Below are positions 21,992 to 54,476 of a stretch of DNA of 64,000 nt, piece after piece. Source of the stretch: a virus. The stretch spans positions 32,001 through 96,000 of the IMG/VR virus record IMGVR_UViG_3300027759_000003, one strand, 5' to 3'. The number at the start of each line of letters is the position of its first letter. The first letter of the stretch is position 1. Made by a program: the position numbers and the translations under genes. The notes under the pieces are model-generated. The model was not told where the DNA came from. It did no database searches and saw only the letters and a list, made by a program, of their open reading frames with translations.

Positions 21992-22020
21992 ACAACCTAG
22001 GCATGTTGTAAAACTGCCTA
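21992..22020 (+). ncRNA. Copy of a repeated H-type pseudoknot-like RNA motif (3' of hsp20)
   Basis: ACAAC-CTAGGCAT-GTTGT-AAAAC-TGCCTA: P1 ACAAC/GTTGT, P2 TAGGCA/TGCCTA. Confidence 0.55.
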
Positions 22021-22057
22021 TTATTTGATATACTTAGATATAACTATAGGAGAATTA

Positions 22058-22231
22058 ATGCCAAGATATGATTACAAATGCTCTGTTTGTTCTTCACAAA
22101 TTGAGTTTGAAAAAAAATTTGATGAAGAAAAATATCCAGTATGCTGTAATCAATCTATGCAAAGACTTTGGAGTGCTCCTACTGCAATTTTTAACGGTAG
22201 TGGATTTTATTCAACAGACAATAGAAAGTAG
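22058..22231 (+). CDS. FmdB-family zinc-ribbon protein
   Basis: MPRYDYKCSVC...FNGSGFYSTD signature. Confidence 0.88.
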   Translation: MPRYDYKCSVCSSQIEFEKKFDEEKYPVCCNQSMQRLWSAPTAIFNGSGFYSTDNRK

Positions 22232-22246
22232 CGATATAATAGTACT

Positions 22247-22504
22247 ATGACAAACATATTAAAAGATCATCCAAGCGTAAAGCCAAAACAATGGGTTTTA
22301 GATGCAAAAGATCGTTGTGATACATGCCAAGCACAAGCCTTAGTCAAAGTCAAAGGGGCTTCTGGAGAATTAATGTTTTGTAGTCATCACTACGATAAGA
22401 TAATGAATAACTCTGAGTCATATGCAAAGATGATGTCTTTCATGTTAGAGGTTCTTGATGAGCGTGAAAAGTTAGTTGAAAATAGAGCGATTGGGGCAGT
22501 GTAA
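22247..22504 (+). CDS. Hypothetical protein (DRCDxC...LMFCxHH family)
   Basis: Zn-binding motif seen in actinobacterial/phage small proteins. Confidence 0.7.
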   Translation: MTNILKDHPSVKPKQWVLDAKDRCDTCQAQALVKVKGASGELMFCSHHYDKIMNNSESYAKMMSFMLEVLDEREKLVENRAIGAV

Positions 22505-22911
22505 TGTATGAGTATTTTGTTAGAGAAGTAAAAAGTGTTGTTGATGGAGATACCATTGACGTAATTATTGATTTAGGGTTTGATATTTTATTTTCATCCC
22601 GTGTTCGTTTGGCTGGCATCGATACGCCAGAGTCACGTACAACAGACAAGGCTGAAAAGGCTCTTGGTCTTGAGGCTAAAGAATATTTAAAGAAACAGTT
22701 AAAGGATGCTAAGTCAGTTGTTATTCGTACAGAAAAAATGAATTCTTCTGAAAAATATGGACGTATTCTTGGTTGGATATATATTAATGGAGAATCAGAG
22801 TCTATTAATAATAAAATGATTAATGATGGATATGCTTGGGGATACCTTGGCGAAACCAAAATTAAAGATTTTGAAGTATTAAAAAAGGCTAGAGTAAAGT
22901 CTGGCAAATGA
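22504..22911 (+). CDS. Thermonuclease (SNase family)
   Basis: VVDGDTID, VRLAGIDTPE and EKYGRILG motifs. Confidence 0.92.
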   Translation: MYEYFVREVKSVVDGDTIDVIIDLGFDILFSSRVRLAGIDTPESRTTDKAEKALGLEAKEYLKKQLKDAKSVVIRTEKMNSSEKYGRILGWIYINGESESINNKMINDGYAWGYLGETKIKDFEVLKKARVKSGK

Positions 22912-23165
22912 AATCAATACTTTACTTTACGGCAGACTGGTGTCAGCCTTGTAAGAAAGTAAAGCCAATTGTTGAAGAATTAAATAGAGAATATTTTCCT
23001 GGTATTTTTCAAATAGTTGATGTAGATATAGAAAGTGAAATGGCTAAAACTTTTGAAATTCGTTCTGTGCCAACATTTATTTTATTTAAAGACGGTAAAG
23101 AAATTAATAAAATAATTGGATCACAGACCAAACAATCATTATTGGAGTTTATTGGAAATGAATAA
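22908..23165 (+). CDS. Thioredoxin
   Basis: FTADWCQPCK active site, RSVPTFILFKDG. Confidence 0.92.
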   Translation: MKSILYFTADWCQPCKKVKPIVEELNREYFPGIFQIVDVDIESEMAKTFEIRSVPTFILFKDGKEINKIIGSQTKQSLLEFIGNE

Positions 23166-23493
23166 CGAAGAAGAAAAAATAATTGAAAAACTTATTCTTG
23201 ATGGTGGATTAGAAACTGTAGGGGTTGACCAAGAAACTGGAGAACTTTTATACTCTTTTACTCCTAAGATTAAAAATCTTATGCCTAATTTATATAATGA
23301 GCACATAACAGATGTTAATTCTTGTGTTATGAAATTATGGGAAAAGGGGTTTTTAGAAATAGATTTCTTTGCTTCAGAACCCATTATTACCCTATCTGAA
23401 AAAGCCTTTGATCGTGATGCAGTAGAGGGTTTATCTAAAAAAGACAGGTGGAATCTTTTTGAAATCATACGGCTTTTGAATCCTAAAACCTGA
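23158..23493 (+). CDS. Hypothetical protein
   Basis: ATG at 23158 overlapping the thioredoxin stop. Confidence 0.6.
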   Translation: MNNEEEKIIEKLILDGGLETVGVDQETGELLYSFTPKIKNLMPNLYNEHITDVNSCVMKLWEKGFLEIDFFASEPIITLSEKAFDRDAVEGLSKKDRWNLFEIIRLLNPKT

Positions 23494-23522
23494 TATAATC
23501 TATATATAGCCTAGGAGGTTTT

Positions 23523-24326
23523 ATGTCAGTAAACGAAGATAAAAATGTGCCAATCTCAAAATCAATGGTAGCAGAGGGTGACTTTGTTATGTTTGTTCAT
23601 GAGGATGATGGCATTATGGCTGGTCGTATTGAATATGTTATGACTAATCCTGGTTTACTTGGTCTTCCTGGTTCTGAATACTCAATGGAATATGCTGAAG
23701 ATGACAAACCAGTTATTGTTCGTGCTTATAAAGAAGAAGATGGCGCATGGGAAGAACAGGCATATGTTTTTTATCATCGCATGTCAGAAGTTATAAAAAT
23801 TGAATCACTATCTGTTTCAGTTGACATGGTTGTAGAAATGGGATCAAATGGAACTGGTATTCCAACAATCCCATCGCAATCTGATATGGAAAACATGTAT
23901 GCTGTTCAGGTAAGCAAATCCTACAACTCAGATAATGAAGATGAAGACAAGTGGGACAATATGACAAAAGCATGTTGGGTTGGATATGAACAACGTGGCA
24001 TGAAAGAAAAAGGTGGACGCATGGTTCCTAATTGTGTTCCTGTTAACAAACTAAAAGAAATGGAAAATGAAATGGCAAAAGCAAAACCTAATTATGGAGA
24101 TTTTATTAAACCACGTAGGGGTGGATCAACACCATCAGATCCTAAACTATATGCAAGAGTTGTGCAAGCAGCAAAAGATAAGTTTGACGTTTATCCGTCT
24201 GCAGTAGCAAATTCTTGGGTAGTACAAGAATATAAGCGTCGTGGCGGTACATACAAATCAGAGTCACAATCTACAACAAAAAGTATTTGGGATGGATCTT
24301 TTAATCCTTTAAGGTTTGAAAAATAA
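23523..24326 (+). CDS. Multi-motif hypothetical protein (CWxGY...MVPNCVP motif; C-terminal DUF5872-like segment)
   Basis: AGGAGG RBS; KLYARV...KFDVYPSA.A..WVVQEYKRRGGTY. Confidence 0.65.
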   Translation: MSVNEDKNVPISKSMVAEGDFVMFVHEDDGIMAGRIEYVMTNPGLLGLPGSEYSMEYAEDDKPVIVRAYKEEDGAWEEQAYVFYHRMSEVIKIESLSVSVDMVVEMGSNGTGIPTIPSQSDMENMYAVQVSKSYNSDNEDEDKWDNMTKACWVGYEQRGMKEKGGRMVPNCVPVNKLKEMENEMAKAKPNYGDFIKPRRGGSTPSDPKLYARVVQAAKDKFDVYPSAVANSWVVQEYKRRGGTYKSESQSTTKSIWDGSFNPLRFEK

Positions 24327-24466
24327 TGACAAAGAAAAAAACAACAGCATTCAATCCTACACAAATAAAAAATGGTAGGATTGTTCGTTTAAGAAAAGAC
24401 GGTACCATAAAAACAGATCTTGGTCCGTATCCAAAAACAAAGGCAGGGGTAACTAATGGCAAATAA
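24326..24466 (+). CDS. Small basic protein (46 aa)
   Basis: Read by eye: MTKKKTTAFNPTQIKNGRIVRLRKDGTIKTDLGPY...; coupled start. Confidence 0.5.
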   Translation: MTKKKTTAFNPTQIKNGRIVRLRKDGTIKTDLGPYPKTKAGVTNGK

Positions 24467-24566
24467 AGAACAAAAAGGTAATGCTAATACAAAAAAAGAG
24501 CCTAAGATGACTCTTAAAGAAAAACGTGTTGCTAAACAACAAAAACGGGATAAGAAAAATGGCTGA
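24456..24566 (+). CDS. Small Lys-rich protein (36 aa)
   Basis: Read by eye: MANKEQKGNANTKKEPKMTLKEKRVAKQQKRDKKNG; G-rich RBS. Confidence 0.5.
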   Translation: MANKEQKGNANTKKEPKMTLKEKRVAKQQKRDKKNG

Positions 24567-24930
24567 TACATACACTCCTACTTCTGGTATGAAGGCTGCT
24601 GCTCGTCGTGCATTGAAGTGGAAAGAAGATGGTAAGGCAACTGGCGCAGGAACTCCAGTAGGCTGGGGTCGTGCAACTGATATTGTAAATGGATCAGCAA
24701 TGTCTCTTAGTACTGTTAAAAGAATGTTTTCTTTCTTTTCCCGTCACGAAGTAGATAAAAAAGGCAAAGGTTTTTATGATGGTCCAGAGTTCCCTTCTAA
24801 CGGCAGAATTATGTGGGATGCTTGGGGTGGTGATGCAGGATTTTCATGGAGCCGTGCAATTGTGGAAAGAGAAAAAAAACAAGTAGAAAAGGTTTGGGCA
24901 GATAGCCCATTTAATTTAAGGAAGGGGTAA
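24559..24930 (+). CDS. Conserved phage protein (domain often associated with head morphogenesis genes)
   Basis: GTPVGWGRA...TVKRMFSFFSRHE...IMWDAWGGDAGFSWS motif. Confidence 0.7.
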   Translation: MADTYTPTSGMKAAARRALKWKEDGKATGAGTPVGWGRATDIVNGSAMSLSTVKRMFSFFSRHEVDKKGKGFYDGPEFPSNGRIMWDAWGGDAGFSWSRAIVEREKKQVEKVWADSPFNLRKG

Positions 24931-24933
24931 AAA

Positions 24934-25092
24934 GTGGAGGACTTAACCATTGAAGAAGTAAAACAATTAGTTGTATTTTATAAACAAAAATCTTCAGATC
25001 TTGAGTTTAATTTATTGCAAATGCAAATAAAGTTAAATAGGACTATGTCTGTTGAAAATTCAGTAGAAGCAAAACCAGTAATTAAAAAGTAG
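24934..25092 (+). CDS. Small coiled-coil protein
   Basis: GTG start after AAGGGG; 52 aa read by eye. Confidence 0.5.
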   Translation: MEDLTIEEVKQLVVFYKQKSSDLEFNLLQMQIKLNRTMSVENSVEAKPVIKK

Positions 25093-25105
25093 ATTGGTCT
25101 GAATA

Positions 25106-25525
25106 ATGCAAGAGTTAATAGTCTTAGGCTTGACATTGGCTCTTGCTTGGTTTATACTTAGAGTAGGTAAAAGAAATAAAGAAAAACCTTTTTCTAGAAC
25201 TTTGCATAAACAAAGTGATACGCATAGGTTAATGAAATTATTTTTTTCCATGCCTATATCAAATAACCAGCAAAACCTTTCTCAATTGACAAAACATAAA
25301 GAAAAGGGTATGATTAAGGTTATTGTTTTAGGCAACGAAGCATATTGGATATCTAATCATATTTTTTATGTTGCAGAGGCTGTAGACGGTGAGGTACAAC
25401 GCCACACCGCTAAACCAATAGATACTAGTACTTTATCAAAAGGTGACTTAGATAAAATGCTTTTTATATTAGATAGTTTAAGGGATGGAAAAAGAGATGA
25501 TCGTGGCAGTTCAGGGCACAAGTGA
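25106..25525 (+). CDS. Hypothetical protein with N-terminal TM anchor
   Basis: 139-aa ORF in the operon. Confidence 0.6.
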   Translation: MQELIVLGLTLALAWFILRVGKRNKEKPFSRTLHKQSDTHRLMKLFFSMPISNNQQNLSQLTKHKEKGMIKVIVLGNEAYWISNHIFYVAEAVDGEVQRHTAKPIDTSTLSKGDLDKMLFILDSLRDGKRDDRGSSGHK

Positions 25526-25847
25526 GTTTAATGATTACAACGTATTCATTCGCTCTATGGGTGTTGCCATGTCAAACATGCATAAAGACGATACAGAGTT
25601 TGTAATTTACTCTGCTGGTCCTGCTAAAATAAATTCTTTTGTTTCTGAGTTTTCTAATTTATCTGAAAGAGGAATGAAAGCAAGAGGAAAAAAGATTAAA
25701 TTTTATAAAGTTGCTCCAGTTTGGATGCAAGAAAATTTAGATCAAATTAACTACTTTGCTTTCTTAAGTAAGCCTAATGAAAAAACTTCAAAATTAGTTT
25801 CAGAGGCACAGTTAAAAAATGTAGAAGTTGGTATATTTAAATACTAG
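25497..25847 (+). CDS. Hypothetical protein (possible SLOG/YspA-like fold)
   Basis: MIVAVQGT.EFNDY N-terminus resembles SLOG-type proteins. Confidence 0.5.
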   Translation: MIVAVQGTSEFNDYNVFIRSMGVAMSNMHKDDTEFVIYSAGPAKINSFVSEFSNLSERGMKARGKKIKFYKVAPVWMQENLDQINYFAFLSKPNEKTSKLVSEAQLKNVEVGIFKY

Positions 25848-25856
25848 GGGGTATTT

Positions 25857-26066
25857 ATGTTTATTAGAAGTTTGAATACTATGGAAAAAATTATTTCCAA
25901 AAATAATAATTTACTTTGGAATGGTTGGGATGTTATTGATTTAAAAGAATCTGACATTGCAAAAACATCTCCAATGGGTATTAGAGTTAAAGATAAGTGG
26001 TACATCCACAAAGTTTATTCTCCTGGTCGTAATGGGTGGGATATACCAAACAAGTATCGAGAGTAA
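25857..26066 (+). CDS. Hypothetical protein
   Basis: 69-aa ORF, LLWNGWDV motif, G-rich RBS. Confidence 0.6.
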   Translation: MFIRSLNTMEKIISKNNNLLWNGWDVIDLKESDIAKTSPMGIRVKDKWYIHKVYSPGRNGWDIPNKYRE

Positions 26067-26068
26067 TT

Positions 26069-26353
26069 ATGAAACAGCATTTATGGAAAGATGACGCAAT
26101 TTGTTTAGGTCTTGATACAAATATTTATTTTGATAAATATGAAGACAACGAATCTGGTAGGGCAATTGTTGATTCAATGTGCCAGCAATGTCCAGTAGCA
26201 AAAACATGCTTTGCAGTAGGCATCTCTGGTAAAGAGTGGGGTGTTTGGGGTGGAGTATATCTAGAAGGTGGAGAAGTATCTAGAGAGTTTAACAAGCATA
26301 AGACTAAAGAAGATTGGTCCAATACCTGGCAATCTTTAACAATGGAAAAATAA
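26069..26353 (+). CDS. whiB: WhiB-family Fe-S transcription factor
   Basis: W...AIC...FD...CQQCPV...C...EWGVWGG: four Cys plus the G(V)WGG turn. Confidence 0.92.
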   Translation: MKQHLWKDDAICLGLDTNIYFDKYEDNESGRAIVDSMCQQCPVAKTCFAVGISGKEWGVWGGVYLEGGEVSREFNKHKTKEDWSNTWQSLTMEK

Positions 26354-26586
26354 TGTATACAGATAAAATGAAAATGGCATTTCATTCTATTCCAGCCCCT
26401 AAAAATTTCAAGGTAGAAATTATTGATAACGAACATTTTATAACCATTAAGGCTAATGAGGATATGTTTATGCGTCTATTTGACACAGAGAAGCGACATG
26501 CTGTAGAATATATGGTAAGAGTAAAAAAGGCTTTAGAGGATAATGGGGCAATTGTAATGATTACTAGGGAGGCTATTAAAAAATGA
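26353..26586 (+). CDS. Hypothetical protein
   Basis: ATG at 26353 coupled to the whiB stop. Confidence 0.6.
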   Translation: MYTDKMKMAFHSIPAPKNFKVEIIDNEHFITIKANEDMFMRLFDTEKRHAVEYMVRVKKALEDNGAIVMITREAIKK

Positions 26587-27160: not shown

Positions 27161-27168
27161 GAGGAATA

Positions 27169-27435: not shown

Positions 27436-27452
27436 ACAATCTTCTATAAGAT

Positions 27453-27485
27453 AGCCAGTCTAGAAATAGGCTGGCTTTTCTTTTA
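27453..27485. terminator. Terminator between convergent operons
   Basis: AGCCAGTCTA-gaaa-TAGGCTGGCT followed by T-rich tract. Confidence 0.8.
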
Positions 27486-39212: not shown

Positions 39213-41174
39213 ATGGCAGCCAAAAGAGTAGTTACCAGTAGTAGTATAGCCAACAGTTTTAAGATGAGTGTTGGACAATCTTCTGCTGCCATTCCAAATT
39301 CCCCGACAATCGGCACTGCTACTGCTGTAACAGGAACTACTGCTACTGTTGCTTATACTGCTGCCGTATTAGGGGCTACAGCATCATCCTTTACTGCTAC
39401 ATCTAATCCAGGATCACTTACTGGTACTGGTTCTTCACCTATAACGGTTAGTGGTTTGACTGGTGAAACAAATTATACTTTTACAGTTTATGCAACTAAT
39501 GCAAATGGTAACTCAGCGCAATCTGGTGCAAGTAATCAAATTACTACTCCTACTGCAAACTTAATTATTGATGCTCTTGTTATTGCTGGCGGTGGTGGAG
39601 GTGGAAGTTATGGAACTAGTGGTGGCGGCGGCGCAGGCGGATTATTATATTTTAGTTCACAAACTCTATCTCCTGCATCTTATGTAATAACTGTTGGAGC
39701 AGGAGGTGCAGCAGCCACTAATGGATATGATTCACAATTTGGTGCGTTAACTTCGGCTATAGGTGGTGGAACAACTGGAACTAATGGTGGTTCTGGTGGT
39801 GGTGCTGGTGACACTGGTAACGCTGGCTCTGGTGTAGTTGGACAAGGAAACAACGGAGGATCTAGGGGTGGAAGCATTGGTTTAGGAGGAGGAGGTGGTG
39901 CAGGAGGTGCTGGCGGAAATGGTTCAGGTAATGGTGGTGTAGGTGGTGCTGGTGTAAACACATATTCATCTTGGGCATCTGCAACTTCTACAGGTGTATC
40001 TGGATATTACGCTGGCGGCGGCGGTGGCGCTGGCCATTATAGTCAACAGGTTGGAGGTGCAGGTGGTTCAGGTGGAGGTGGAAATGGTGGTTCTGCTGAC
40101 ACAGTTGCTGCTACTTCTGGAGTTGCAAATACAGGTTCAGGTGGTGGTGGTGGTGCATTTGCTGGTTATAGTCCTAGTCCACTTGGTGGTTCAGGTGGTT
40201 CAGGAATTGTTATAGTTCGTTATCAATCTGGTACACAAAAAGCATTAGGTGGAACAATTACAACATCTGGAGGATATTATTATCATACATTTACTGCATC
40301 AGGTATTTTTCAAACAGAGTATTCAGTAGCAAAAGCAACTGGCGGATCAATAAATACTGATGGTACTTATTGGTATCACACATTTACTGGTTCAGGTACA
40401 TTTACTCCTACTCAATCATTAACTGCTGATTATTTGGTAGTAGCAGGCGGCGGCGGTGGAGGAAACATGGGCGGTGGCGGCGGAGCAGGTGGACTTCGTT
40501 CTACTGTTACTGCAACAGGCGGTGGCGGTTCATTAGAATCATCAGTATCTTTAATTAACAATACAGCATACGCAATTTCTATTGGTGCAGGAGGAACTAG
40601 TTCAGTTCAACATAATATTTCTGGCGGTCAAGGTGTAAATTCATCAATTATTGGTGGAGCAATCTCTATTACATCTACAGGTGGCGGTGGTGGAGCAAGT
40701 TATGCTTCAAGCCCAAGTAGTGGTGGTTCAGGTGGCGGCGGCCAGCGTTCTAATGGTGCAGGAGCATCTGGAACACAATATCAGGGTTATGCAGGTGGTT
40801 CAGGTGGTGGATATAGCGGTGGTGATGATAGTCTTTCATCTGGCGGTGGCGGAGGCGGAGCAGGTACTATTGGTGGTTCATATAATTCTGGAATTACTAA
40901 AGCAGGTAATGGTGGTAACGGTGTTCAAATTACTGCATTATCAACACCAACTGGAACTGGTAAAGACAGTGGCTATTACGCAGGTGGTGGTGGAGGTGGT
41001 GGATATAACTCAACCGCTGGGTCTGCAGGTCTTGGTGGAGTAGCAGGTGTAACTGGTGGCAATAATGGTATATCTGGAACTCCAAATACTGGTAGTGGCG
41101 GTGGAGGTGGCGGTACTGGAAGAAATGGCGGACCAGGCGGTAGCGGTATAGTAATAATTAGGTATGCAGTCTAA
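39213..41174 (+). CDS. FN3 + two glycine-rich domains protein 3
   Basis: Same architecture as 36655-38640; nearly identical FN3 DNA. Confidence 0.8.
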   Translation: MAAKRVVTSSSIANSFKMSVGQSSAAIPNSPTIGTATAVTGTTATVAYTAAVLGATASSFTATSNPGSLTGTGSSPITVSGLTGETNYTFTVYATNANGNSAQSGASNQITTPTANLIIDALVIAGGGGGGSYGTSGGGGAGGLLYFSSQTLSPASYVITVGAGGAAATNGYDSQFGALTSAIGGGTTGTNGGSGGGAGDTGNAGSGVVGQGNNGGSRGGSIGLGGGGGAGGAGGNGSGNGGVGGAGVNTYSSWASATSTGVSGYYAGGGGGAGHYSQQVGGAGGSGGGGNGGSADTVAATSGVANTGSGGGGGAFAGYSPSPLGGSGGSGIVIVRYQSGTQKALGGTITTSGGYYYHTFTASGIFQTEYSVAKATGGSINTDGTYWYHTFTGSGTFTPTQSLTADYLVVAGGGGGGNMGGGGGAGGLRSTVTATGGGGSLESSVSLINNTAYAISIGAGGTSSVQHNISGGQGVNSSIIGGAISITSTGGGGGASYASSPSSGGSGGGGQRSNGAGASGTQYQGYAGGSGGGYSGGDDSLSSGGGGGGAGTIGGSYNSGITKAGNGGNGVQITALSTPTGTGKDSGYYAGGGGGGGYNSTAGSAGLGGVAGVTGGNNGISGTPNTGSGGGGGGTGRNGGPGGSGIVIIRYAV

Positions 41175-45339: not shown

Positions 45340-46070
45340 GCGGGTACAGAAGGAGTATCGTAATCCCCAGTGTAATAACAAACCTTATATCCCCATAGCC
45401 CCATATCCCAGATAGCCAGATATGTCTGGTTTGGGAACCAACGAGATGGTTAAATACCGTCGCAAATAGGGCTTGGAAGGCTTTTAAATAGGTGGTTTGG
45501 AGGTTTGGTATGAAAGATAATCCTTACTGACATTTTTTAGATTGGGTTAGAATGGAGGAAAGTGGAGCATAGTGGGGGATTGGGCGATTTTATAGATGGC
45601 GTCGTAATCCTCTGGCGGCCAAACCTCCCTATCCCAAACCTTCCTATCTCCATATGCGGCATGCATTATATACCCAAAAGCAAGGTTTGTCAAGTAAAAA
45701 ACCCCTATAAAAACATAACAAAAAAGTTATAAAAGTATTAAAAAACCAGGGAAAAAGTATAGAAAGGTTTGGTAATTATGGGAATAGTTTGTATAAATCT
45801 GGGATTTTTTTTGCCCCTTCGTAATGTGTTATTATACTATCAATCAGCGCCGCCACGGGCGGCAGAAATGGGCGGGGATAAAAAGATATACCCATACCCC
45901 TAGTATAAGAGAGATGAATCTGGAAAATATTTCAAACCTTCGTAATGTCTTTTTAGAAAATAAGGTTTGGAAGGTTTGGCTATCAATGGGGAAAATATTT
46001 TGATGGATCGTAATGTCTTTTTCGTAAATAAGGTTTGGAGGTTTGGTAATTGATACCGGGTTTTTCCTAT
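45340..46070. repeat. Non-coding region dense in AGGTTTG/CAAACCT and TCGTAAT motifs
   Basis: About 730 bp with no ORF of 60 aa or more; roughly a dozen (A)GGTTTG-type and about six TCGTAA(T) copies. Confidence 0.6.
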
Positions 46071-47619: not shown

Positions 47620-47628
47620 TAGGTCTCC

Positions 47629-48600: not shown

Positions 48601-49316
48601 CTGCTTTGGCTTGCTCCCCAATAGGTTTGAGGGTTCTCTTCAAGAAGTCCCCTAATACTATTAATAACCTCTTCGTCAGACATGATCTCTCCGTCTGTGT
48701 TTATAAGTTCCATAATCTTATCTATGATCTCACCGTGGTCCATTAGTCTTCATCCTCATCTTCATCAATTACATATGCAACATTAGACTGACCCTCGTGA
48801 AATGAAGGTGGGTCTTGCCATATACCCCAAGATAAAGAACTATCAGATAGGCCCTCTGACACTAAGTCTCCACCAAATTGCGATGAATATGTTTTAGTCA
48901 CATTACCCATAGTATGTGTTCTCATCTATGTAACCTTCTGCTAACAAACCTTCAAAGAAGTCCCATATGGTTAATAGGCCTTGCTTTACTTTTGGGTCGG
49001 TAGCGGAATCAATAGCAACAGTTAAACTATTACCAAATTCTTGTATATCCTTGTATGTATAACCTAACATTATCTATCATACTCCTTAATCAAATTCATC
49101 GCAAAGTGAAGACAACAATCGCAGTCTCCATTATTCATGCTATATATAAAGTCAAAATGTTCAGAGTTGTCCTCATATATATTCATTATTAGGCCGTCTA
49201 TGGTTAGTGGTTTGTTAATTGTGGTCATGTTAATATTTTACAGGAAACTGGGGAAAAAGTCAATCTTTCTTAATGAAACAATCATGTGTTATTATTTAAA
49301 GAAAGAAAACCCGGAG

Positions 49317-49390
49317 CGGCTCTGATGGGACTTGAACCCACGATCTCTACCGTGACAGGGTAGCGCATTAACCAACTATGCTACAGAACC
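49317..49390 (-). tRNA. tRNA-Asp(GTC)
   Basis: Minus strand GGTTCTG...CTACC-ctGTCac-GGTAG...GGTTCAAGTCC...CAGAGCC. Confidence 0.93.
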
Positions 49391-49395
49391 AATGG

Positions 49396-49425
49396 TGAGC
49401 AGTTTTAAATCATGCTCAGGATTTT
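49396..49425 (-). ncRNA. Repeated pseudoknot-like RNA motif copy (between DUF932 and tRNA-Asp)
   Basis: AAATC-CTGAGCAT-GATTT-AAAAC-TGCTCA. Confidence 0.55.
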
Positions 49426-49428
49426 TTA

Positions 49429-50445
49429 CTAAACTAGTTGCAAAGTTTTTTGCACAACAGTTAGCAAACGATTTTTTTCTGCATTAGTTGCAGGGTCAAA
49501 TCCAGAAGCAGCAGCAAACATGCTTTCGCCATTTGCACTACGAGATGAACGATACCAGTCTAAACGCTCAGTAAGTGCATTAAATGCGCCCCAAGCATTA
49601 CCAGCAATCATGCCATTAAAATCACCAGTATAAATATCGTTAATCATATTTACCTTGTTTTCCCATTTCTTGATTGCACCCTTAGTATCTAATTCAGGTT
49701 TTGGATAAGCAGCAAGAATAATATCATTGAAATCTTTCGCTGATATTTCTTTTTGTATCATAGCATGAGCCATCTTGTCGAATTCGTCCATGTATGAGTT
49801 AGCCATACCTAGTGCTTGACGAGCAACAGCAACCTTGCCATTGGCAGTTTGTGTATGACGGATTTTGAAAGATTGCTTGACGCCATCTTTTTTCTTAGTA
49901 CGATTGAGTGCAACATTAAGAGTGTTAGCGCACACAACACGAACGGGAGTGATAGAAGCCTGAATTGCAATAGAGCCATCATGGCTAGTGTTAATAAGCA
50001 AATAAGTTTTAACCTTATCCGCAACACCATTTGGGTCTAATACAGTTTCACGCTCTAAAGCAAGAGAGCCAAATACTACACGACCACCCTTAAGAGAGCC
50101 AGCAGTTTCCCAACGACCTCCACCATCAAGAATGTTATCGCCAAATGCAAATAACTCTTCATTTTGTAGTGGTGTGTATCGCTCACCAACAATTCCCAAA
50201 ACATCAGTTTGAGATTTATCAGTTGGGTTTGTACGAACAACATATTGATATTGTTTGTCAGATACTAAACTAGATGGGATTTCTAAATCCTCTAGTCTAA
50301 CATTCCAATTATTTAAGTTAGCAGCAACAAGCATTTCACTTGTATTTTTTTCAGTATCAAATACTGTGCCAAGATTGTGCCATGCAGGCTCTCTAAATGA
50401 AGCAAAACTTGCTACGCCATTTTGAGTTTCTAAATCATGAGCCAT
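49429..50445 (-). CDS. DUF932/DUF945-family phage protein
   Basis: PAWHNLG, YTPLQNEE, WETAGSL.GG, NTSHDGS and TPVRVVCANTL motifs. Confidence 0.88.
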   Translation of the reverse strand: MAHDLETQNGVASFASFREPAWHNLGTVFDTEKNTSEMLVAANLNNWNVRLEDLEIPSSLVSDKQYQYVVRTNPTDKSQTDVLGIVGERYTPLQNEELFAFGDNILDGGGRWETAGSLKGGRVVFGSLALERETVLDPNGVADKVKTYLLINTSHDGSIAIQASITPVRVVCANTLNVALNRTKKKDGVKQSFKIRHTQTANGKVAVARQALGMANSYMDEFDKMAHAMIQKEISAKDFNDIILAAYPKPELDTKGAIKKWENKVNMINDIYTGDFNGMIAGNAWGAFNALTERLDWYRSSRSANGESMFAAASGFDPATNAEKNRLLTVVQKTLQLV

Positions 50446-50471
50446 TTTTATCCTTTCGGTTGTTTTAACTA

Positions 50472-50500
50472 AGTTTAGCAGTCATGACAGCCAATGTCAA
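50472..50500 (-). promoter_or_regulatory. Consensus sigma70/SigA promoter for DUF932
   Basis: TTGACA-17 bp-TAAACT with extended TG. Confidence 0.8.
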
Positions 50501-50576
50501 ATAGGATTGGGGAAAATGGTTTAATCTTCTTAATTGGTATAAATCGGACATTTCGGGCGGGGCCGGGTTTTTGTTA

Positions 50577-50606
50577 GGGCCAGTTTTACGTCTTGGCCCA
50601 CGACGT
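50577..50606 (-). ncRNA. Repeated pseudoknot-like RNA motif copy (covariant variant)
   Basis: ACGTC-GTGGGCCAA-GACGT-AAAAC-TGGCCC. Confidence 0.5.
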
Positions 50607-50662
50607 TGATAGCCCCCTATCAAATTTAAGCGGTCCCTGCAGCGGATGCTACAGATCTCTTA

Positions 50663-51127
50663 TTAGTTCTCCTCAAGTGACACATCGTCTACAGTTAAGT
50701 CAGCGTCATAGTCATATGAACTTAATTCTGCATCAATGGTTACACTGCTTAGATCAAAGTCTTCAATCTCATCCAATGGGATGTTAATAGTTCCACTGAA
50801 TGTAACGGTGCCGTATACACTCATTTGCTTTACAGGATTAAGATTAAAGTGTTGTGTTAGCGCTTTTAAAACTTCTTCTTTAGAATAGTTTGGGTCATAC
50901 CATTCAGGAATTTGATCTTCAAGCCATGAGATGTCTAAACGACGCTCTGCTGCTAGATTGGCATTAGTTCTGCCTTGATGTAGTTCCCATTCAAGATCAG
51001 TAACTTTATCAGTCATGAATGTAGGGCTTTCAGGTGCTGCATAGGTGTCAGGTATAGCCTTGTAGGTTACAAGTAGGTTAGGATTGTATGGAACAGATAA
51101 CTGCTCCTGTGTCATTACTTCGCTCAT
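50663..51127 (-). CDS. Acidic hypothetical early protein
   Basis: ATG at 51127 after AAGGA; promoter TTGCAT-17-TATTAT at 51153-51181. Confidence 0.65.
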   Translation of the reverse strand: MSEVMTQEQLSVPYNPNLLVTYKAIPDTYAAPESPTFMTDKVTDLEWELHQGRTNANLAAERRLDISWLEDQIPEWYDPNYSKEEVLKALTQHFNLNPVKQMSVYGTVTFSGTINIPLDEIEDFDLSSVTIDAELSSYDYDADLTVDDVSLEEN

Positions 51128-51262
51128 TAGGGGTTCCTTTTCTGTTAATACAATAATATCATCAAGATTGTGGGAATGCAAGTTCAGTTCTTAATTAGTC
51201 TCACATAATGAGATGTGATTTAGATCACGCTGCCCCGGATTTTTGCGGGGGGCAATTAAAGA

Positions 51263-51292
51263 TGAGCAGTTTAGAACTCATGCTCAGGAGTC
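51263..51292 (-). ncRNA. Repeated pseudoknot-like RNA motif copy
   Basis: GACTC-CTGAGCAT-GAGTT-CTAAAC-TGCTCA. Confidence 0.55.
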
Positions 51293-51342
51293 TTATCTCA
51301 GGAATAACTTAGCAATTAAGCCAAGTGCTTATCAGAGATAAA

Positions 51343-51513
51343 TTATTTAGTTGTGCTTACCATAGCAAGGCGTCTTGCGCCATTTGCTAATTGTAAGGAT
51401 ACTCTAGTGGTCTTAGAGTTGATAGGTGAGAACTTTACAATTCTACCTGTGATACCTGTTTTGCTTGTGGTGAATAAATCACCTAGTTGGTATGTGTATC
51501 CGCCTAGTGTCAT
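51343..51513 (-). CDS. Small SH3/KOW-like beta protein (paralog of 52112-52282)
   Basis: Read by eye: MTLGGYTYQLGDLFTTSKTGITGRIVKFSPINSKTTRVSLQL; promoter TTGACT-17-TATACT at 51550-51578. Confidence 0.65.
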   Translation of the reverse strand: MTLGGYTYQLGDLFTTSKTGITGRIVKFSPINSKTTRVSLQLANGARRLAMVSTTK

Positions 51514-51595
51514 GATTTTCCTTTTCTGTTGTGGTGGTTTGTTATATTAAGTATAACATTTTTGGGGGGGCAAGTCAAGAACCCCCCCAATACTA

Positions 51596-52018
51596 TTAGA
51601 GATAACGAGCAATAGCGTTATATGTGCTAGTGCTAACTGTTTCCTCGTCCGTCATTTTAAGGATACGGATAGCGTTCTCAAGTTCCTCTTTCATTTCACG
51701 ATAAGTATGAGCATGGATTTGCTCAAAATTACGCTCAGGCTCTTTGGGAAAGTCTGCCTCATCTGTGATTAAATCAAAATCAACATTAAGGGTTTTGTTC
51801 CAAGAACGATAGTTAGTGCGTAGGTTTTCAGCCTTTGAGATGTTAGCAGTAGCAAACTTAGCAACTTCTTTGCGCCATTTATCTACTTGCTTTTGGAACT
51901 TTGCTTCCAGTTCATCTTGATTTGTGTAGTCAGCATTTACTTGTGCTAACTTTGTTTCTAAGGCTTTGATAACCTTAGCAGTAGCGATTTTTACGCTGAT
52001 GGGTTTGCTTCTTGCCAT
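51596..52018 (-). CDS. Hypothetical early protein
   Basis: 140-aa ORF ending NAIRILKMTDEETVSTSTYNAIARYL. Confidence 0.7.
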   Translation of the reverse strand: MARSKPISVKIATAKVIKALETKLAQVNADYTNQDELEAKFQKQVDKWRKEVAKFATANISKAENLRTNYRSWNKTLNVDFDLITDEADFPKEPERNFEQIHAHTYREMKEELENAIRILKMTDEETVSTSTYNAIARYL

Positions 52019-52065
52019 TTGGTTTGTTTCCGTTTCTGTTGGTGAGTTTGATGGGGGTATTAAGT

Positions 52066-52092
52066 TGAGCAGTTTCTCGTCATGCTCAGGAC
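52066..52092 (-). ncRNA. Repeated pseudoknot-like RNA motif copy
   Basis: GTC-CTGAGCAT-GAC-GAGAAAC-TGCTCA preceded by hairpin TTAGCC-tagt-GGCTAA. Confidence 0.55.
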
Positions 52093-52111
52093 TTTAGCCA
52101 CTAGGCTAAGA

Positions 52112-52282
52112 TTAAGCGTTCTTTGCTGTCCAAGTTGTCCAGCGAGTTGAGCCATTAACATCTAACTTAACTCTAACTGTGTTCTTGTTAGTTGGCACAA
52201 TTTCGGTAATAGTTCCTACTACCTTTGATTTTTGTGATGTGTAGGTGTCGCCTACCTTGTATGTTGCGTTTGCTACGGACAT
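52112..52282 (-). CDS. Small SH3/KOW-like beta protein
   Basis: AGGAG RBS; YKVGDTYTSQKSKVVGTITEI...VRVKLDV. Confidence 0.65.
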   Translation of the reverse strand: MSVANATYKVGDTYTSQKSKVVGTITEIVPTNKNTVRVKLDVNGSTRWTTWTAKNA

Positions 52283-52377
52283 GGTTCTCCTTCTTGTTGG
52301 TTTTTGCTTACTGTATAAGTCTAACATTTTTTGGTCAAAAATACAAATTATCTCATGGATAATCTCATATATTGAGA

Positions 52378-52393
52378 TGTGAGATATATCACA
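52378..52393. promoter_or_regulatory. CRP/GlxR-type box (perfect)
   Basis: TGTGA-GATATA-TCACA. Confidence 0.7.
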
Positions 52394-52467
52394 CTTAATG
52401 CCCCATGCCTGAGAATAGGATATATAAGAATATAAGTGATAATACTATTAGTATCTCCATATGCCCC

Positions 52468-53196
52468 TTATTTCTTAGATGATGAAAAGACTATGTCGCT
52501 CTTAGAGTATACACACAAACCGCAAGATACGCAAGCCGAGCCAGCGCTTGAGATAAGTGGAATGGCTTTTAGGTTTTCAGGGCACTTAGCACCAGGTCGA
52601 TTAAATAACTCCTTCATATCTGCCTGACCTATTGCAAAATTCTGTGCAAGGTATGCAAGGCGTATCCCATGATCTTTCTTTAAATTAACGCCTATCTGCT
52701 TATTCTCGCTGTCTGTTGAATAGTATAAGGATAGATTAGGAATATCCTTTAGCATTACCGCTGCAGGCTGTACCCTTGTATATACCCAGAATTTTATATC
52801 TGTATTGTTAAGGATGATTTGTTTCCATGCTTTGGTGTACGTGTCATTAAAGAAATCACCGTCCCAATGAATACGAAATAACAATGACGCATTTTTCTTT
52901 TCACAATCTTTTTTAAAATCATTAATCATATTCTGCAATAGATCAATCATAGTCGATTCGTCAGCGTCTTTTAATAATTCCCAATTATGTATTAGGTTTG
53001 CCTTTACGGCTTTGTAAAGTTTTTCAAGTTTTCCTGCGTAGCAAACACTTTCACAAACACTAGTGGCACCAGGGCATGAATAATTCTTTCCAGCGGGAAG
53101 ACCGAACGTGTTTGCAATTGCGGCTTGCTTTCCATTTTTTGTAACAAGATTAGCAACCTTTCTGTCAAATGATCTTTTTAATTGTGGTGTTGTCAT
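52468..53196 (-). CDS. Gp88-family phage protein
   Basis: FGLPAGKNYSCPGATSVCESVCYA, FRIHWDGDF, WVYTR and C-terminal CVSCGLC. Confidence 0.8.
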   Translation of the reverse strand: MTTPQLKRSFDRKVANLVTKNGKQAAIANTFGLPAGKNYSCPGATSVCESVCYAGKLEKLYKAVKANLIHNWELLKDADESTMIDLLQNMINDFKKDCEKKNASLLFRIHWDGDFFNDTYTKAWKQIILNNTDIKFWVYTRVQPAAVMLKDIPNLSLYYSTDSENKQIGVNLKKDHGIRLAYLAQNFAIGQADMKELFNRPGAKCPENLKAIPLISSAGSACVSCGLCVYSKSDIVFSSSKK

Positions 53197-53299
53197 ATAA
53201 ATATTTTAGCAGAATGTGGAGAAAATATCAAGTGTACGTAAGGTACAAAACGGACAAATCGGGCAGGGCCGGGTTTTTCTGCGGGGAAGTGCAGAAAAA

Positions 53300-53533
53300 T
53301 TATTCTAAGTGAACATACCAATCATAGTATTCATTATCAACTAACTGAGCGGTATCTTTTTCACCAAACTCATTTTGATACTCTGCATACCAAAAGTATT
53401 GGTCAGGATCAGATTCAATAGAAAGTATTTCAACTACCTCATCATTGTATCCAATAAAATCTCCAACCATCATCATAGAAGGTTTGAGAATATCTATTTT
53501 CTTTAATTCCATGTTCATCATTGTAGCAGCCAT
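53300..53533 (-). CDS. Hypothetical early protein
   Basis: GAGG RBS; 77 aa. Confidence 0.55.
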   Translation of the reverse strand: MAATMMNMELKKIDILKPSMMMVGDFIGYNDEVVEILSIESDPDQYFWYAEYQNEFGEKDTAQLVDNEYYDWYVHLE

Positions 53534-53618
53534 TTATTCAGCCTCAATTTCTGCTAGGGTTTCCCATAGAATAGGTTCTAGAATTTTTGCAACCTGATCT
53601 AATTTATCTTGCAAGTCT

Positions 53619-53915
53619 TTACTCATATAAGTCCTCATCTGCTGGCTCAATGAACCACTCTAGGTGTGCGTGTGATACCAATGCGCTGGCGGTAGTCCAA
53701 GTGTTGCCCTTCCAACTAATTTGAAAGCCATCAACAACTGGTAATTCTATTCTACGAGAATAATCCTCCTCATAGTATGCGTCAATAGCCTCAATACATG
53801 GCTGAACCATTACTGTTGGTATTGGTGGATAATGATTACCTTGTAAGTGATACTTTAATTGTGTTTCTAGGTCTAGCGTTGTATCTGCTAAACCTATTGC
53901 TGTTATGCTTCCCAT
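53619..53915 (-). CDS. Hypothetical early protein
   Basis: HLQGNHYPP...PCIEAI...HAHLEWF motif family. Confidence 0.7.
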   Translation of the reverse strand: MGSITAIGLADTTLDLETQLKYHLQGNHYPPIPTVMVQPCIEAIDAYYEEDYSRRIELPVVDGFQISWKGNTWTTASALVSHAHLEWFIEPADEDLYE

Positions 53916-54139
53916 TATTTAATTACGACCTCTCCGTTAGTGTAGAAGGTTTTAGTATACATCTTACCTGTTGGGTCAGACAAATTATAGGTTGCGTATT
54001 CTTTAGCAAAGCCATAGTCCACGCATTTATCCCAAGCCCTAACTGCTTCTAGCATATCGCTAACTCGCAGGGTATGAATTAACTCTCCATCATATGAAGT
54101 AGTAAGTGAATAAGTATATTCCATTAGTTTAGTTTCCAA
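53915..54139 (-). CDS. Hypothetical early protein
   Basis: AWDKCVDYG.AKEYATYNL motif; coupled to the downstream gene. Confidence 0.6.
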   Translation of the reverse strand: METKLMEYTYSLTTSYDGELIHTLRVSDMLEAVRAWDKCVDYGFAKEYATYNLSDPTGKMYTKTFYTNGEVVIK

Positions 54140-54313
54140 TCCATTAGTTCGTCAGCAGATATAGCGTAAGGATTACACTCGCAAGGCTCACTATCAAAGT
54201 CTACATTATTTCCTTGATATATCCAACCATAGCCGTAGCAGTATTCGTGCTCTAGTATATCCATTAGTGCTTCTTTTACTTTACCCATTTGTTCCTTCTT
54301 TCTTTATATCTTT

Positions 54314-54335
54314 ATCCTATCAGATACAACTGACA
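54314..54335 (-). promoter_or_regulatory. PafBC-type (RecA-NDp) promoter
   Basis: TGTCAG-N10-TAGGAT. Confidence 0.6.
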
Positions 54336-54435
54336 AAATCCAATTAGACGCCTTAATCTGGGGAATTTAGGGTGTGATCTTAACCACACGTAAAGGTCAT
54401 GTATAGATTGCGACACGCCGCCTGCGCCGGGTTTT

Positions 54436-54451
54436 TCGAACAAATGTTTGA
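54436..54451. promoter_or_regulatory. Actinobacterial LexA (SOS) box-like site
   Basis: TCGAAC-AAAT-GTTTGA, one mismatch to TCGAAC-N4-GTTCGA. Confidence 0.45.
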
Positions 54452-54476
54452 GCAGTTTTTATTCTTGCTCAGGAAT
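54449..54476 (-). ncRNA. Repeated pseudoknot-like RNA motif copy
   Basis: ATTC-CTGAGCAA-GAAT-AAAAAC-TGCTCA. Confidence 0.55.

Follow-up and report, generated by a model that had tools for sequence, protein, structure and literature searches.

The window, that is, the whole 64,000-nucleotide stretch of DNA that was analysed, belongs to a phage record of 109,757 bp with terminal repeats. It contains seven copies of a small element, each folding by itself, at the mRNA level, into an H-type pseudoknot of 26-30 nt. Six of them had been pointed out in a first-pass annotation and all lie where it had placed them, except that the copy starting at 49396 ends at 49424 instead of 49425; a divergent one (c7) makes the total seven. 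The copies and adjacent features are listed below, with segments written as P1/L1/P2a/L2/P1'/L3/P2b.

c1, 21992-22020, plus strand: ACAAC/C/TAGGCA/T/GTTGT/AAAAC/TGCCTA; P1 21992-21996/22005-22009, L1 C 21997, P2 21998-22003/22015-22020, L3 AAAAC; 3' of hsp20, stop codon end at 21987, 8 nt from the closing C; next start codon 22058
c2, 49396-49424, minus strand: AAATC/C/TGAGCA/T/GATTT/AAAAC/TGCTCA; 3' of a DUF932 gene (49429-50445), 8 nt from the end of its TAG to the closing C; followed by CCAUU and tRNA-Asp
tRNA-Asp (GTC), 49316-49390, minus strand: first base 5 nt past c2
c3, 50577-50606, minus strand: ACGTC/GT/GGGCCA/A/GACGT/AAAAC/TGGCCC; a variant with an L1 of 2 nt (GU) and P2 GGGCCA/UGGCCC; 60 nt past the stop of a 172-aa ORF, with two hairpins intervening
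Predicted sigma-70-like promoter, 50500-50472: downstream of c3
c4, 51263-51292, minus strand: GACTC/C/TGAGCA/T/GAGTT/CTAAAC/TGCTCA; L3 1 nt above the usual length; 54 nt past the stop of a 56-aa ORF
c5, 52066-52092, minus strand: GTC/C/TGAGCA/T/GAC/GAGAAAC/TGCTCA; P1 of 3 bp; intercistronic, 21 nt from the stop to the P1-closing base, with a 6-bp hairpin (-8 kcal/mol) upstream; next start 52018
c6, 54449-54476, minus strand: ATTC/C/TGAGCA/A/GAAT/AAAAAC/TGCTCA; 9 nt from the stop end of a 54-aa ORF to the closing C; a AAAAACCCGGC box next
c7, 55762-55787, minus strand: ATT/TT/TGCAGA/-/AAT/AAAAAC/TCTGCA; stop end of a 38-aa ORF (55794-55910) 8 nt from the last P1a base; a AAAAACCCGGC box and then three hairpins downstream

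All seven copies are in sense orientation relative to the flanking genes, with gaps of 8-60 nt from the stop codon, and none has a U-tract, as had been noted at first reading for six of them; c2 is the copy described there as lying a few nucleotides before tRNA-Asp. Extra hairpins occupy the longer stop-to-knot gaps of c3, c4 and c5. Since the interval between c2 and the tRNA is too small for a promoter, tRNA-Asp is probably co-transcribed through the knot; no promoter-like site was seen between c5 and the next start. At c3, c6 and c7 further G+C-rich elements lie downstream, with the promoter-like site beyond them in c3. In that context a need for a 3' cap or a 5' shield is not obvious, which counts against the roadblock and end-cap function considered below. 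The fixed-geometry pattern CCTRRRYAWGNNNNNAAACTRYYYA gives 4 matches in the window and 0 in 100 dinucleotide-preserving shuffles, while a loose descriptor alone is uninformative (about 5 matches per shuffled genome). The remainder of the 109.7-kb genome holds no additional convincing copy.

About 300 or more further instances were found in IMG/VR and prokaryote genomes; the loci concerned number at least 119 in IMG/VR, and the genome contigs likewise at least 119. Genome matches listed include Saccharibacteria, Anaerolineae, Lactobacillaceae, Nocardia, cyanobacteria and two contigs of Methanobrevibacter. The knot belongs to a large family carried by phages, prophages and other mobile elements in many phyla. 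Genes adjoining it are unrelated in function: in a Lacticaseibacillus prophage it separates the minor-capsid gene from the scaffold gene, and in a Ligilactobacillus contig it lies 3' of a weakly Mu F-like gene. ORF clustering of the listed knot-bearing loci gave no protein family in common beyond this phage's own relatives. No Rfam family matches the knot, and our literature search found no published description of it in phages. The family is thus uncatalogued in Rfam, and its nearest published relative is coremin.

The consensus, NNNC-C-URRRYA-W-GNNN-NNWAAAC-URYYYA, comprises a P1 of 3 strictly paired bp closed by C-G (with a fourth pair in ~70% of listed instances), a single C as L1 across the groove of a 6-bp P2, and an L3 ending 3' in the invariant AAAC; P1' and L3 together take up 10 nt in most listed instances. 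The commonest geometry accounts for 189 listed instances; in these, each of the three inner P1 pairs is Watson-Crick at a rate of 98-100%, and a position shows up to 4 pair types. The inner two of these pairs were absent from every search pattern, and the closing pair was demanded only in the genome scan; in the IMG/VR search, which left it free, 155 of the 159 non-redundant listed instances have C-G there. For P2, 47 instances were picked by a non-consensus 5' strand, blind to the 3' strand, and all 47 carry the compensating 3' strand with all five inner pairs formed (20-32 of 47 in shuffled controls). Lone non-Watson-Crick P2 pairs are G-U or U-G in 31 cases and A-C or C-A in 2; therefore it is the sense-strand RNA that folds, and both a dsDNA palindrome and the antisense strand are excluded. 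The covariation score is 0.456 on alignment A1, whose members were chosen for pairing; shuffles give 0.157, and slid partners no more than 0.111. The proposal that both helices of a sense-strand H-type pseudoknot covary is thus borne out by the P1 pairing and the P2 compensation, and the invariance claimed for AAAC holds in all seven copies and in the wider instance set. As the instance sets were collected by sequence patterns, conservation of the patterned positions is overstated. P2 stays U-R-R-R-Y-A, mostly UGAGCA, across phyla, and a purely mechanical block would leave this conservation unexplained.

The knot sits at gene and RNA boundaries. The distance from the end of a stop codon to the P1-closing pair is 8-9 nt in 41% of listed instances; stop triplets peak at offsets 8 (68/289) and 9 (52/289; other nearby offsets, 10-26), with no closer-in excess. 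The upstream ORF ends at a median of 11 nt on the sense strand, against 135 nt for the antisense equivalent. The strongest signal upstream of P1 is the stop-codon A, all columns there being at or below 0.3 bits, and neither a conserved slippery sequence nor an extended frame is present near the knots. On the other side, same-strand tRNAs, DUF2800 RNAs and a hammerhead start 0-12 nt past the knot: a tRNA follows within 3-12 nt in 23 listed loci, the DUF2800 RNA (RF02960) begins at the adjoining nucleotide in 6, and at one locus (L134) a type III hammerhead lies directly 3'. A tRNA ends just before the knot in only one listed locus; at least one copy, in S-CRM01, lies 3' of a tRNA and not of an ORF. 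Transcription evidently runs through the knot, because the tRNAs sit 3-12 nt downstream. Intrinsic terminators and REP-type 3' stabiliser hairpins likewise lie on the sense strand right past stops, and can shield upstream mRNA from 3' exonucleases. In contrast to them, the knot is not a plain hairpin, lacks a U-tract, is conserved in sequence across phyla and has tRNAs 3-12 nt downstream. Hairpins of at least 4 bp starting 0-3 nt past the knot occur in 12% of listed instances and in 18% of shuffles, and the 30 nt downstream are less structured than controls.

Although Rfam holds no matching family, and the first reading could match the knot to none, a close published relative exists. Coremin, or xrRNA-C, is found in BNYVV RNA3/5, cucumoviruses and many other eukaryotic RNA viruses, which use it against RNA-degrading enzymes and ribosomes (PMC6546385, PMC10520033). 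Its sequence, GUC-CGAA-GAC-GUUAAAC-UAC, has a sequence-specific loop-closing C-G, requires a pyrimidine at loop position 1 and contains essential A16-A20 (AAACU); activity is lost on deletion of one spacer base (PMC6546385). Coremin also blocks scanning ribosomes (PMC10520033). Both elements have a 3-4-bp first stem with a sequence-specific closing C-G, a pyrimidine (C in the phages) as first loop base, final loop bases A and then A/U/G, and an AAACU that is invariant or essential. Stem 3' strand and spacer add up to 10 nt in coremin (GAC+GUUAAAC), the commonest phage length, and many phage copies, reading ...GUC-C-...-GAC-GUUAAAC-U..., equal coremin outside the loop. The usual site of both is just past the last ORF. 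However, the coremin loop has 4-8 nt (YGAD/YGNNAD) in non-canonical contact with CUAC, whereas the phage loop forms the 6-bp Watson-Crick P2. Coremin hosts are eukaryotes with Xrn1; phages or bacteria are not mentioned in the coremin papers (PMC10520033, PMC10321173). Coremin further requires a hairpin, hp2, directly downstream for Xrn1 resistance, and the phage family lacks it. The absence of hp2 counts against the roadblock function proposed below, and so does the host range, since for many of the listed hosts no 5'-3' exonuclease is known.

Watson-Crick variants of coremin come closer in architecture. Folded as an H-type knot, they stall Xrn1 and, without any need for hp2, stimulate -1 frameshifting; they were found via a frameshifting screen in E. 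coli (PMC10321173) and can therefore impede bacterial ribosomes. The corresponding xrRNA-WCC, known from two eukaryotic RNA viruses (Sanxia picorna-like virus 5 and an alphachrysovirus) and the laboratory screen, is, like the phage element, a true H-type knot built on the coremin scaffold with a single-base L1, which in xrRNA-WCC is not substitutable, and the natural SPlV5 copy begins 8 nt past the last ORF (PMC10321173). It differs in having an S2 of 3 bp and G as L1, compared with 6 bp and C, and it still requires hp2 for Xrn1 resistance (PMC10321173). In a further system, a flaviviral xrRNA halts bacterial RNase J1 in vitro (PMC5760640).

As the knot shares the critical nucleotides of coremin (xrRNA-C/WCC), we propose that it could be a protein-independent mechanical roadblock and end-cap at the cistron boundaries of long phage transcripts, and we give this explanation about an even chance of being right. 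Among the functions suggested in the first-pass annotation, the block is thus favoured by the likeness to coremin and the placement at RNA boundaries. As has been suggested for coremin, the P1 minor groove probably receives the AAAC of L3, and the P2 groove the L1 C. With the 8-9-nt spacing, a ribosome positioned at the stop codon would have the knot right up against its mRNA entrance, so that termination would need no unwinding, while ribosomes failing to terminate would be halted. Processive RNases would be halted as well, and RNA on one side of the knot could outlive cutting or decay of the other. Sites with a tRNA or hammerhead a few nucleotides downstream suit this idea well: once RNase P has cut at the tRNA, or the hammerhead has cleaved itself, the upstream message would end 3' in the knot.

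The same spacing, with its sharp lower bound, could also mean that the knot acts on the terminating ribosome, by tuning termination or recycling, blocking re-initiation and scanning after termination, or stimulating recoding at the stop. Frameshift-stimulating knots lie at that distance from their slippery sites. Those of luteoviruses (BWYV, PLRV), 5-8 nt past the A site of the ribosome, are likewise compact and H-type, with the L1 C in the S2 groove and an A-rich L2 in the S1 minor groove. They have an S2 of 3 bp and lie in overlapping ORFs behind a slippery heptamer, whereas the phage knots lie past stops and have neither a slippery site nor an extension frame. The BWYV knot does not stall Xrn1 (PMC10321173). 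Stimulation of -1 frameshifting by coremin and its Watson-Crick variants, and the blocking of scanning ribosomes by coremin, speak for a device acting on the ribosome (PMC10321173, PMC10520033). Nevertheless, the distance to the stop is greater for three of the seven copies here and for over half of all instances, and the S-CRM01 copy follows a tRNA. We consider an action on termination unlikely, and it overlaps the roadblock explanation without being exclusive of it. Binding or cutting by a conserved cellular enzyme, punctuating polycistronic phage RNA, we regard as rather doubtful. Across phyla there is hardly any variation in the P2 sequence, L1 C, closing C-G or AAAC, which goes beyond what stability appears to demand; the occurrence in bacteria and Methanobrevibacter points to a universal partner, and the knot lies exactly at the borders of tRNAs, DUF2800 RNA and the hammerhead. 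P2 (6 bp) stacked on P1 (3-4 bp) would give 9-10 bp, a possible mimic of the tRNA acceptor/T-arm, comparable to the TYMV tRNA-like structure, for reading by RNase P or RNase Z. CCA follows the knot in 18 of 159 listed IMG/VR instances, but mainly in one group of related loci where tRNA-Asp lies downstream of it; in the others the knot is followed by C, A or U, without any discriminator-like pattern. RNase P prefers U(-1) and G(+1), while the would-be site has C and U. The alternative partner, a widely shared phage protein, found no candidate in the ORF clustering, and a tRNA or hammerhead directly beside the knot suggests another source for the cut.

At phage gene boundaries, hammerhead and twister ribozymes share the knot's niche between genes in arrays of phages or prophages, often several per operon (PMC3088659; Weinberg 2015, via PMC5737381). 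This niche, common to hammerheads in phage-like gene arrays, and the highly conserved pseudoknot nucleotides across several phyla, the Breaker-lab criterion for 'sophisticated' RNAs (PMC5737381), would suit a new self-cleaving ribozyme or other catalytic RNA. The knot lacks the hammerhead catalytic core, having CUGAGCA and not CUGANGA, no Rfam ribozyme model matches it, it has no defined cleavage site, its close relative coremin is a stable blocker and not a cleaver, and a neighbouring hammerhead would be redundant. The knot is only ~28 nt long, and we know of no natural self-cleaving class that small. Catalysis is therefore very improbable in our opinion. We think it still less credible that the knot is a ligand-binding aptamer of preQ1-I or SAM-II architecture, with which it shares the H-type fold and an A-rich L3 ending in AAC: SAM-II, the best Rfam alignment, reaches 13 bits where the gathering score is 44, which is noise, the neighbouring genes are functionally unrelated, and one phage carries seven copies. 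A riboswitch is further disfavoured because the anchor is the upstream stop codon and not the ribosome-binding site of a downstream gene. In the preQ1 family a C before P1' reads the ligand, while the base here is U or A. Equally hard to credit is a DNA-level recombination site or cassette boundary moving small genes between phages. Many small unrelated accessory ORFs are flanked by the knot in a compact spacing, and unrelated phages carry it, but it is strictly sense-strand, tolerates G-U and not A-C (31 vs 2), and has two crossing helices that covary, which fits a folded single strand of sense polarity, in practice RNA. The knot could nevertheless serve secondarily as a homology patch for recombination.

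The virus record, 109,757 bp long with direct terminal repeats, carries seven copies of the pseudoknot ("the knot", 26-30 nt) in the window, which covers bases 32001-96000 and has a G+C content of 36.8%. All six copies claimed by the first-pass annotation could be read, each with the anatomy ascribed to it: a stem P1, the first strand of a second stem (P2a) in its loop, the returning strand P1', a linker rich in A whose last bases are AAAC, and P2b. The count had to be raised by one, since a descriptor scan of the whole genome added a divergent seventh copy; nothing else convincing was found in that scan. The copies are:

21992-22020, plus strand, knot c1
49396-49424, minus strand, knot c2
50577-50606, minus strand, knot c3
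51263-51292, minus strand, knot c4
52066-52092, minus strand, knot c5
54449-54476, minus strand, knot c6
55762-55787, minus strand, knot c7 (the divergent copy)

A fixed-geometry pattern, CCTRRRYAWGNNNNNAAACTRYYYA, matched the window 4 times and 100 shuffles not at all. A candidate at 39250-39274 (minus strand) and five other loose-descriptor matches were rejected, being without the C of loop L1, the C-G closure and the URRRYA form; the loose descriptor yields about 5 such matches per shuffled genome. The closing pair of P1 is C-G in 6/7 copies and U-A in c7. As had been proposed, every window copy is sense to its flanking genes, none is followed by a U-tract, and a tRNA-Asp gene adjoins one of them, starting 5 nt past c2. 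This tRNA-Asp is solitary, 28 kb from and on the opposite strand to a cluster of four tRNA genes lying back to back (Asn, Gly, Glu and Thr; 21199-21496, plus strand) just upstream of hsp20. The distance from the stop codon to the closing base of P1 is 8-9 nt in c1, c2, c6 and c7. Copies c3-c5 depart from this usual spacing, with extra, ordinary hairpins intervening between stop codon and knot:

50607-50662, minus strand, two hairpins before c3
51293-51342, minus strand, hairpin before c4
52093-52114, minus strand, hairpin before c5 (UUAGCC-UAGU-GGCUAA, -8 kcal/mol, z = -3.1)

The H-type fold put forward in the first-pass annotation is borne out by covariation in both stems. The consensus reads NNNC-C-URRRYA-W-GNNN-NNW-AAAC-URYYYA. 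In the commonest geometry, represented by 189 instances, Watson-Crick pairing holds at the three inner P1 positions in 98-100%, and about 70% have a fourth pair. At the second position the pair is U-A in 110, A-U in 55 and C-G in 19, and at the third it is G-C in 102, A-U in 42, U-A in 23 and C-G in 21. The inner two pairs were absent from every search pattern, and the closing pair was demanded by the genome pattern only; left free in the IMG/VR search, it is C-G in 155/159 non-redundant instances among the matches listed. For P2, we chose instances on P1, L1, AAAC and a non-consensus P2a, leaving P2b out of the choice. All 47 formed five of five inner pairs with their own P2b, compared with 20-32 of 47 after partner shuffling; UGGACA/UGUCCA, UAGACA/UGUCUA, UAAAUA/UAUUUC and, in the window, UAGGCA/UGCCUA are compensated examples. 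Lone non-Watson-Crick pairs in P2 are G-U or U-G in 31 cases and A-C or C-A in 2, so the sense strand is the one that folds and a double-stranded DNA operator is excluded. Alignment A1, in which AAAC and the next U are invariant, has 95.8% of its cells paired, double changes at 8/10 pairs and a covariation score of 0.456 against 0.157 for shuffles and at most 0.111 for slid partners. Since A1 was preselected for pairing, the weight is carried by the unbiased P1 and P2 tests. The knot is structured and widespread, and the covariation is unusually clean for so small an RNA; the fold, strand, conservation and placement of the knot are direct observations.

The exact pattern with the commonest P2, CTGAGCAW-N3-12-AAACTGCTCA, has at least 135 instances in at least 119 IMG/VR loci, and a stricter pattern was found in at least 119 contigs of prokaryote genomes. 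Among the matches listed, P1 reaches 3 bp or more in about 108/119 genome contigs, and the genomes include Saccharibacteria, Anaerolineae, Omnitrophota, Lactobacillaceae, Clostridia, Bacteroidota, Actinomycetota, cyanobacteria, several proteobacterial classes and two Methanobrevibacter contigs. The surroundings are phage-like or mobile at the loci inspected. The knot lies between a minor-capsid and a scaffold gene in a Lacticaseibacillus prophage, and in a Ligilactobacillus contig the gene before it has a weak Mu F-like match; the cyanomyovirus S-CRM01 has at least two knots, one before tRNA-Asp and one after tRNA-Tyr. Both Methanobrevibacter knots (L138:377-402 and L156:1893-1918, from two rumen assemblies) are well formed, with a 4-bp P1, and are followed by an oligo-U run and then by a gene encoding ArdC-N and IrrE/M78 domains. 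The family thus seems to extend to archaeal mobile elements, unless these contigs are mis-binned. About 38 IMG/VR loci among the matches listed belong to relatives of this phage, with a common DUF932 gene and the knot directly behind it. In this phage the DUF932 region also contains a GP88-family gene. The nearest cultured relatives of the DUF932 protein are Streptomyces phages of about 130 kb (about 52% identity), the nearest being NootNoot (52%), which has no knot at the corresponding site and an ordinary hairpin there instead. A low-G+C actinobacterium is a plausible host.

The knot is anchored to the stop codon upstream. Among 289 instances, stop triplets show sharp peaks at distances of 8 nt (68 instances) and 9 nt (52) from the closing C, with 10-26 at neighbouring offsets and no excess closer to it, and the nearest upstream ORF end lies at a median of 11 nt in sense and 135 nt in antisense. 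In the ribosome, about 11 nt separate the mRNA helicase site from the first base of the P site. We infer that the gap of 5-6 nt between stop codon and P1 would place the knot just outside a ribosome with the stop codon in its A site, the closest approach at which it would not be unwound.

Downstream, no fixed partner was found. The 6 nt 3' of the knot are G-poor, and about 30% of instances have a Shine-Dalgarno-like site plus start codon beginning 10-40 nt away; in the others it lies much further off. Among the matches listed, a same-strand tRNA (Asp, Arg, Leu, Ser, Asn or Glu) begins 3-12 nt past the knot at 23 loci, compared with one locus with a tRNA just upstream. Where a structured RNA follows, it starts at once. 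In six gut-type Firmicutes contigs the base next to the knot is the first base of a DUF2800 RNA (Rfam RF02960, 121-157 bits), and a Polynucleobacter MAG contig, L134, combines knot and hammerhead:

L198:912-1071, DUF2800 RNA after a knot
L151:5432-5592, DUF2800 RNA after a knot
L163:5051-5208, DUF2800 RNA after a knot
L200:1598-1754, DUF2800 RNA after a knot
L227:3467-3621, DUF2800 RNA after a knot
L219:1-137, DUF2800 RNA after a knot
L134:7541-7620, minus strand, array of knot and hammerhead at one gene boundary

The knot may set the 5' end of the DUF2800 RNA, or may be part of a longer unit than the Rfam model spans. A variant knot (7620-7593) comes first along the minus strand of L134, and then a type III hammerhead (7595-7541, 50.5 bits), a 51-aa ORF and another knot (7350-7323). 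As the hammerhead directly follows the knot, the two work side by side at one gene boundary.

The closest likeness is to coremin (xrRNA-C), which reads GUC-CGAA-GAC-GUUAAAC-UAC followed by a second hairpin, hp2 (PMC6546385). Coremin needs a sequence-specific loop-closing C-G, a pyrimidine at loop base 1 and A16-A20 (AAACU); U13/U14 are tolerant, and deletion of one spacer base abolishes activity (PMC6546385). It also blocks scanning ribosomes, and octaloops were tolerated in one published construct (PMC10520033). Outside the loop, the coremin scaffold matches the phage consensus base for base, and many phage copies read GUC-C...GAC-GUUAAAC-U just as coremin does. The phage knot has the 3-4-bp first stem with C-G closure, as well as a counterpart of coremin's spacer, which in coremin is length-sensitive, contains the essential AAACU and measures 10 nt from the 3' strand of the stem to C18; P1' plus L3 measures 10 nt in 121/159 IMG/VR instances among the matches listed. 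It differs from coremin in its 6-bp P2 and in its loop, an 8-nt C-URRRYA-W instead of YGAD or YGNNAD, which agrees at its first position (Y) and its final two (A followed by A/U) and departs at position 2, where U replaces G. In 304 instances no coremin-type hp2 was found after the knot: a hairpin of at least 4 bp starts 0-3 nt past it in 12%, where shuffles have 18% and sites at +100 nt have 25%. The 30 nt past the knot also fold less stably than the controls, with a mean folding energy of -2.3 kcal/mol compared with -3.2 and -3.6.

The Watson-Crick variants called xrRNA-WCC, which came out of a frameshifting screen in E. coli, are true H-type knots that stall Xrn1 and stimulate -1 frameshifting; their hp2 is needed for Xrn1 resistance and dispensable for frameshifting, and a natural copy lies 8 nt past the last ORF of a picorna-like virus (PMC10321173). 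The phage knot shares their antiparallel Watson-Crick second stem and 1-nt L1, with 6 bp (47/47 compensated) and a single C where xrRNA-WCC has 3 bp and a G. We therefore regard it as a novel variant of the coremin kind, outside the defined coremin family. The two later coremin papers do not mention phages or bacteria (0 occurrences; PMC10520033, PMC10321173). A full-text query with the sequence of the motif itself matched primers by coincidence and nothing else, and in the literature on pseudoknots with prophage, stop codon, xrRNA, RNase J or phage we found no description of the knot in phages. A genome-language-model preprint, considered as a prior description, deals with other RNAs.

By analogy with these elements, the most likely reading is that the knot is a compact triple-stranded obstacle, probably protein-independent, which would halt non-terminating ribosomes as well as processive RNases and so give the RNA to one side of it a stable end. 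As a 3' cap, it would end the upstream message once RNase P had cut a few bases downstream. The 23:1 asymmetry of the tRNAs fits this, as do the hammerhead and DUF2800 cases provided that cleavage takes place at those points. These observations would suit a 5' shield protecting the RNA downstream as well, and it has been reported that a flaviviral xrRNA stops bacterial RNase J1 in vitro (PMC5760640). We favour the tie to the upstream cistron because the knot is anchored to the upstream stop. In its boldest form the proposal is that a protein-independent element of about 28 nt, the first natural xrRNA counterpart in prokaryotes, halts ribosomes and processive RNases (RNase J, scanning RNase E or 3' exonucleases) at gene boundaries in phages of many bacterial phyla and in some archaeal elements, and that the critical nucleotides it has in common with coremin, a motif of RNA viruses of plants, fungi and invertebrates, reflect common descent or striking convergence. 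We hold this form tentatively and consider it rather unlikely as a whole. A knot that blocked bacterial RNases or ribosomes would be a very compact, portable, host-independent device setting mRNA ends and insulating neighbours, and a ready-made 28-nt part to stabilise or insulate synthetic operons. Such a block would account for the way in which many phages shape their long transcripts with no terminators, and would carry the idea of xrRNAs over from RNA viruses of eukaryotes to DNA phages; one would then ask why identical critical bases recur in both.

A roadblock leaves unaccounted for both the constancy of the P2 sequence across phyla and the absence of hp2, and other readings were weighed against it. 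In one, a universal enzyme (RNase P, for example) would recognise the knot as a signal. A TYMV-type tRNA-like acceptor arm or RNase P substrate appears unlikely, since its 3' strand would be followed by a discriminator base and CCA: CCA follows the knot in 18/159 IMG/VR instances among the matches listed, many of them upstream of tRNAs, and within the window only at c2. A dedicated translation-termination device is another of these readings. The knot is not a Rho-independent terminator, because it has no U-tract and the tRNAs behind it (3-12 nt, 23 loci among the matches listed) are too close for promoters of their own; the sole terminator-like site overlapping a copy, 55758-55786 at c7, is on the opposite strand.

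The first-pass annotation had recognised no known family, and Rfam 15 agrees: searches at gathering scores over the whole window, and at E<=10 over 5.4 kb and 71 nt, returned tRNAs and noise only. An aptamer was weighed, and riboswitches in general are ruled out by position and gene context. The best alignment, to SAM-II (RF01726), scored 13.0 bits (E = 1.9, 71-nt search) against a threshold of 44 bits. PreQ1-I (RF00522) gave no match at E<=10 on 5.4 kb or 71 nt, and is rejected also because the knot is anchored to upstream stop codons and its neighbouring genes are unrelated to queuosine. As to a small ribozyme, hammerhead, pistol, twister and hatchet had no Rfam match in the window, and the knot's CUGAGCA has C where the hammerhead core CUGANGA requires G. 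At the DNA level a recombination site was weighed, and a double-stranded palindrome or operator, TGAGCA-N11-TGCTCA, is ruled out by the G-U bias (31 vs 2) and the P1 covariation.

An 11-mer box recurs near the knots of this phage:

50562-50572, minus strand, exact AAAAACCCGGC
53268-53278, minus strand, exact AAAAACCCGGC
54426-54436, minus strand, exact AAAAACCCGGC
55751-55761, minus strand, exact AAAAACCCGGC
46055-46065, minus strand, AAAAACCCGGC with one mismatch

The chance expectation is 0.76 matches with one mismatch allowed. Three copies lie 4-12 nt past c3, c6 and c7, and the fourth exact copy follows a plain hairpin. After c3, c6 and c7 there are further G+C-rich elements and probably a promoter, and neither a cap nor a shield is obviously needed there. 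About 20 G+C-rich bases, falling into two sequence types, come after each copy of the box. On the plus strand the box resembles the GCCGGGTTTTT tail of a terminator, and it may serve as a terminator, antisense or bidirectional, or as a site for a protein.
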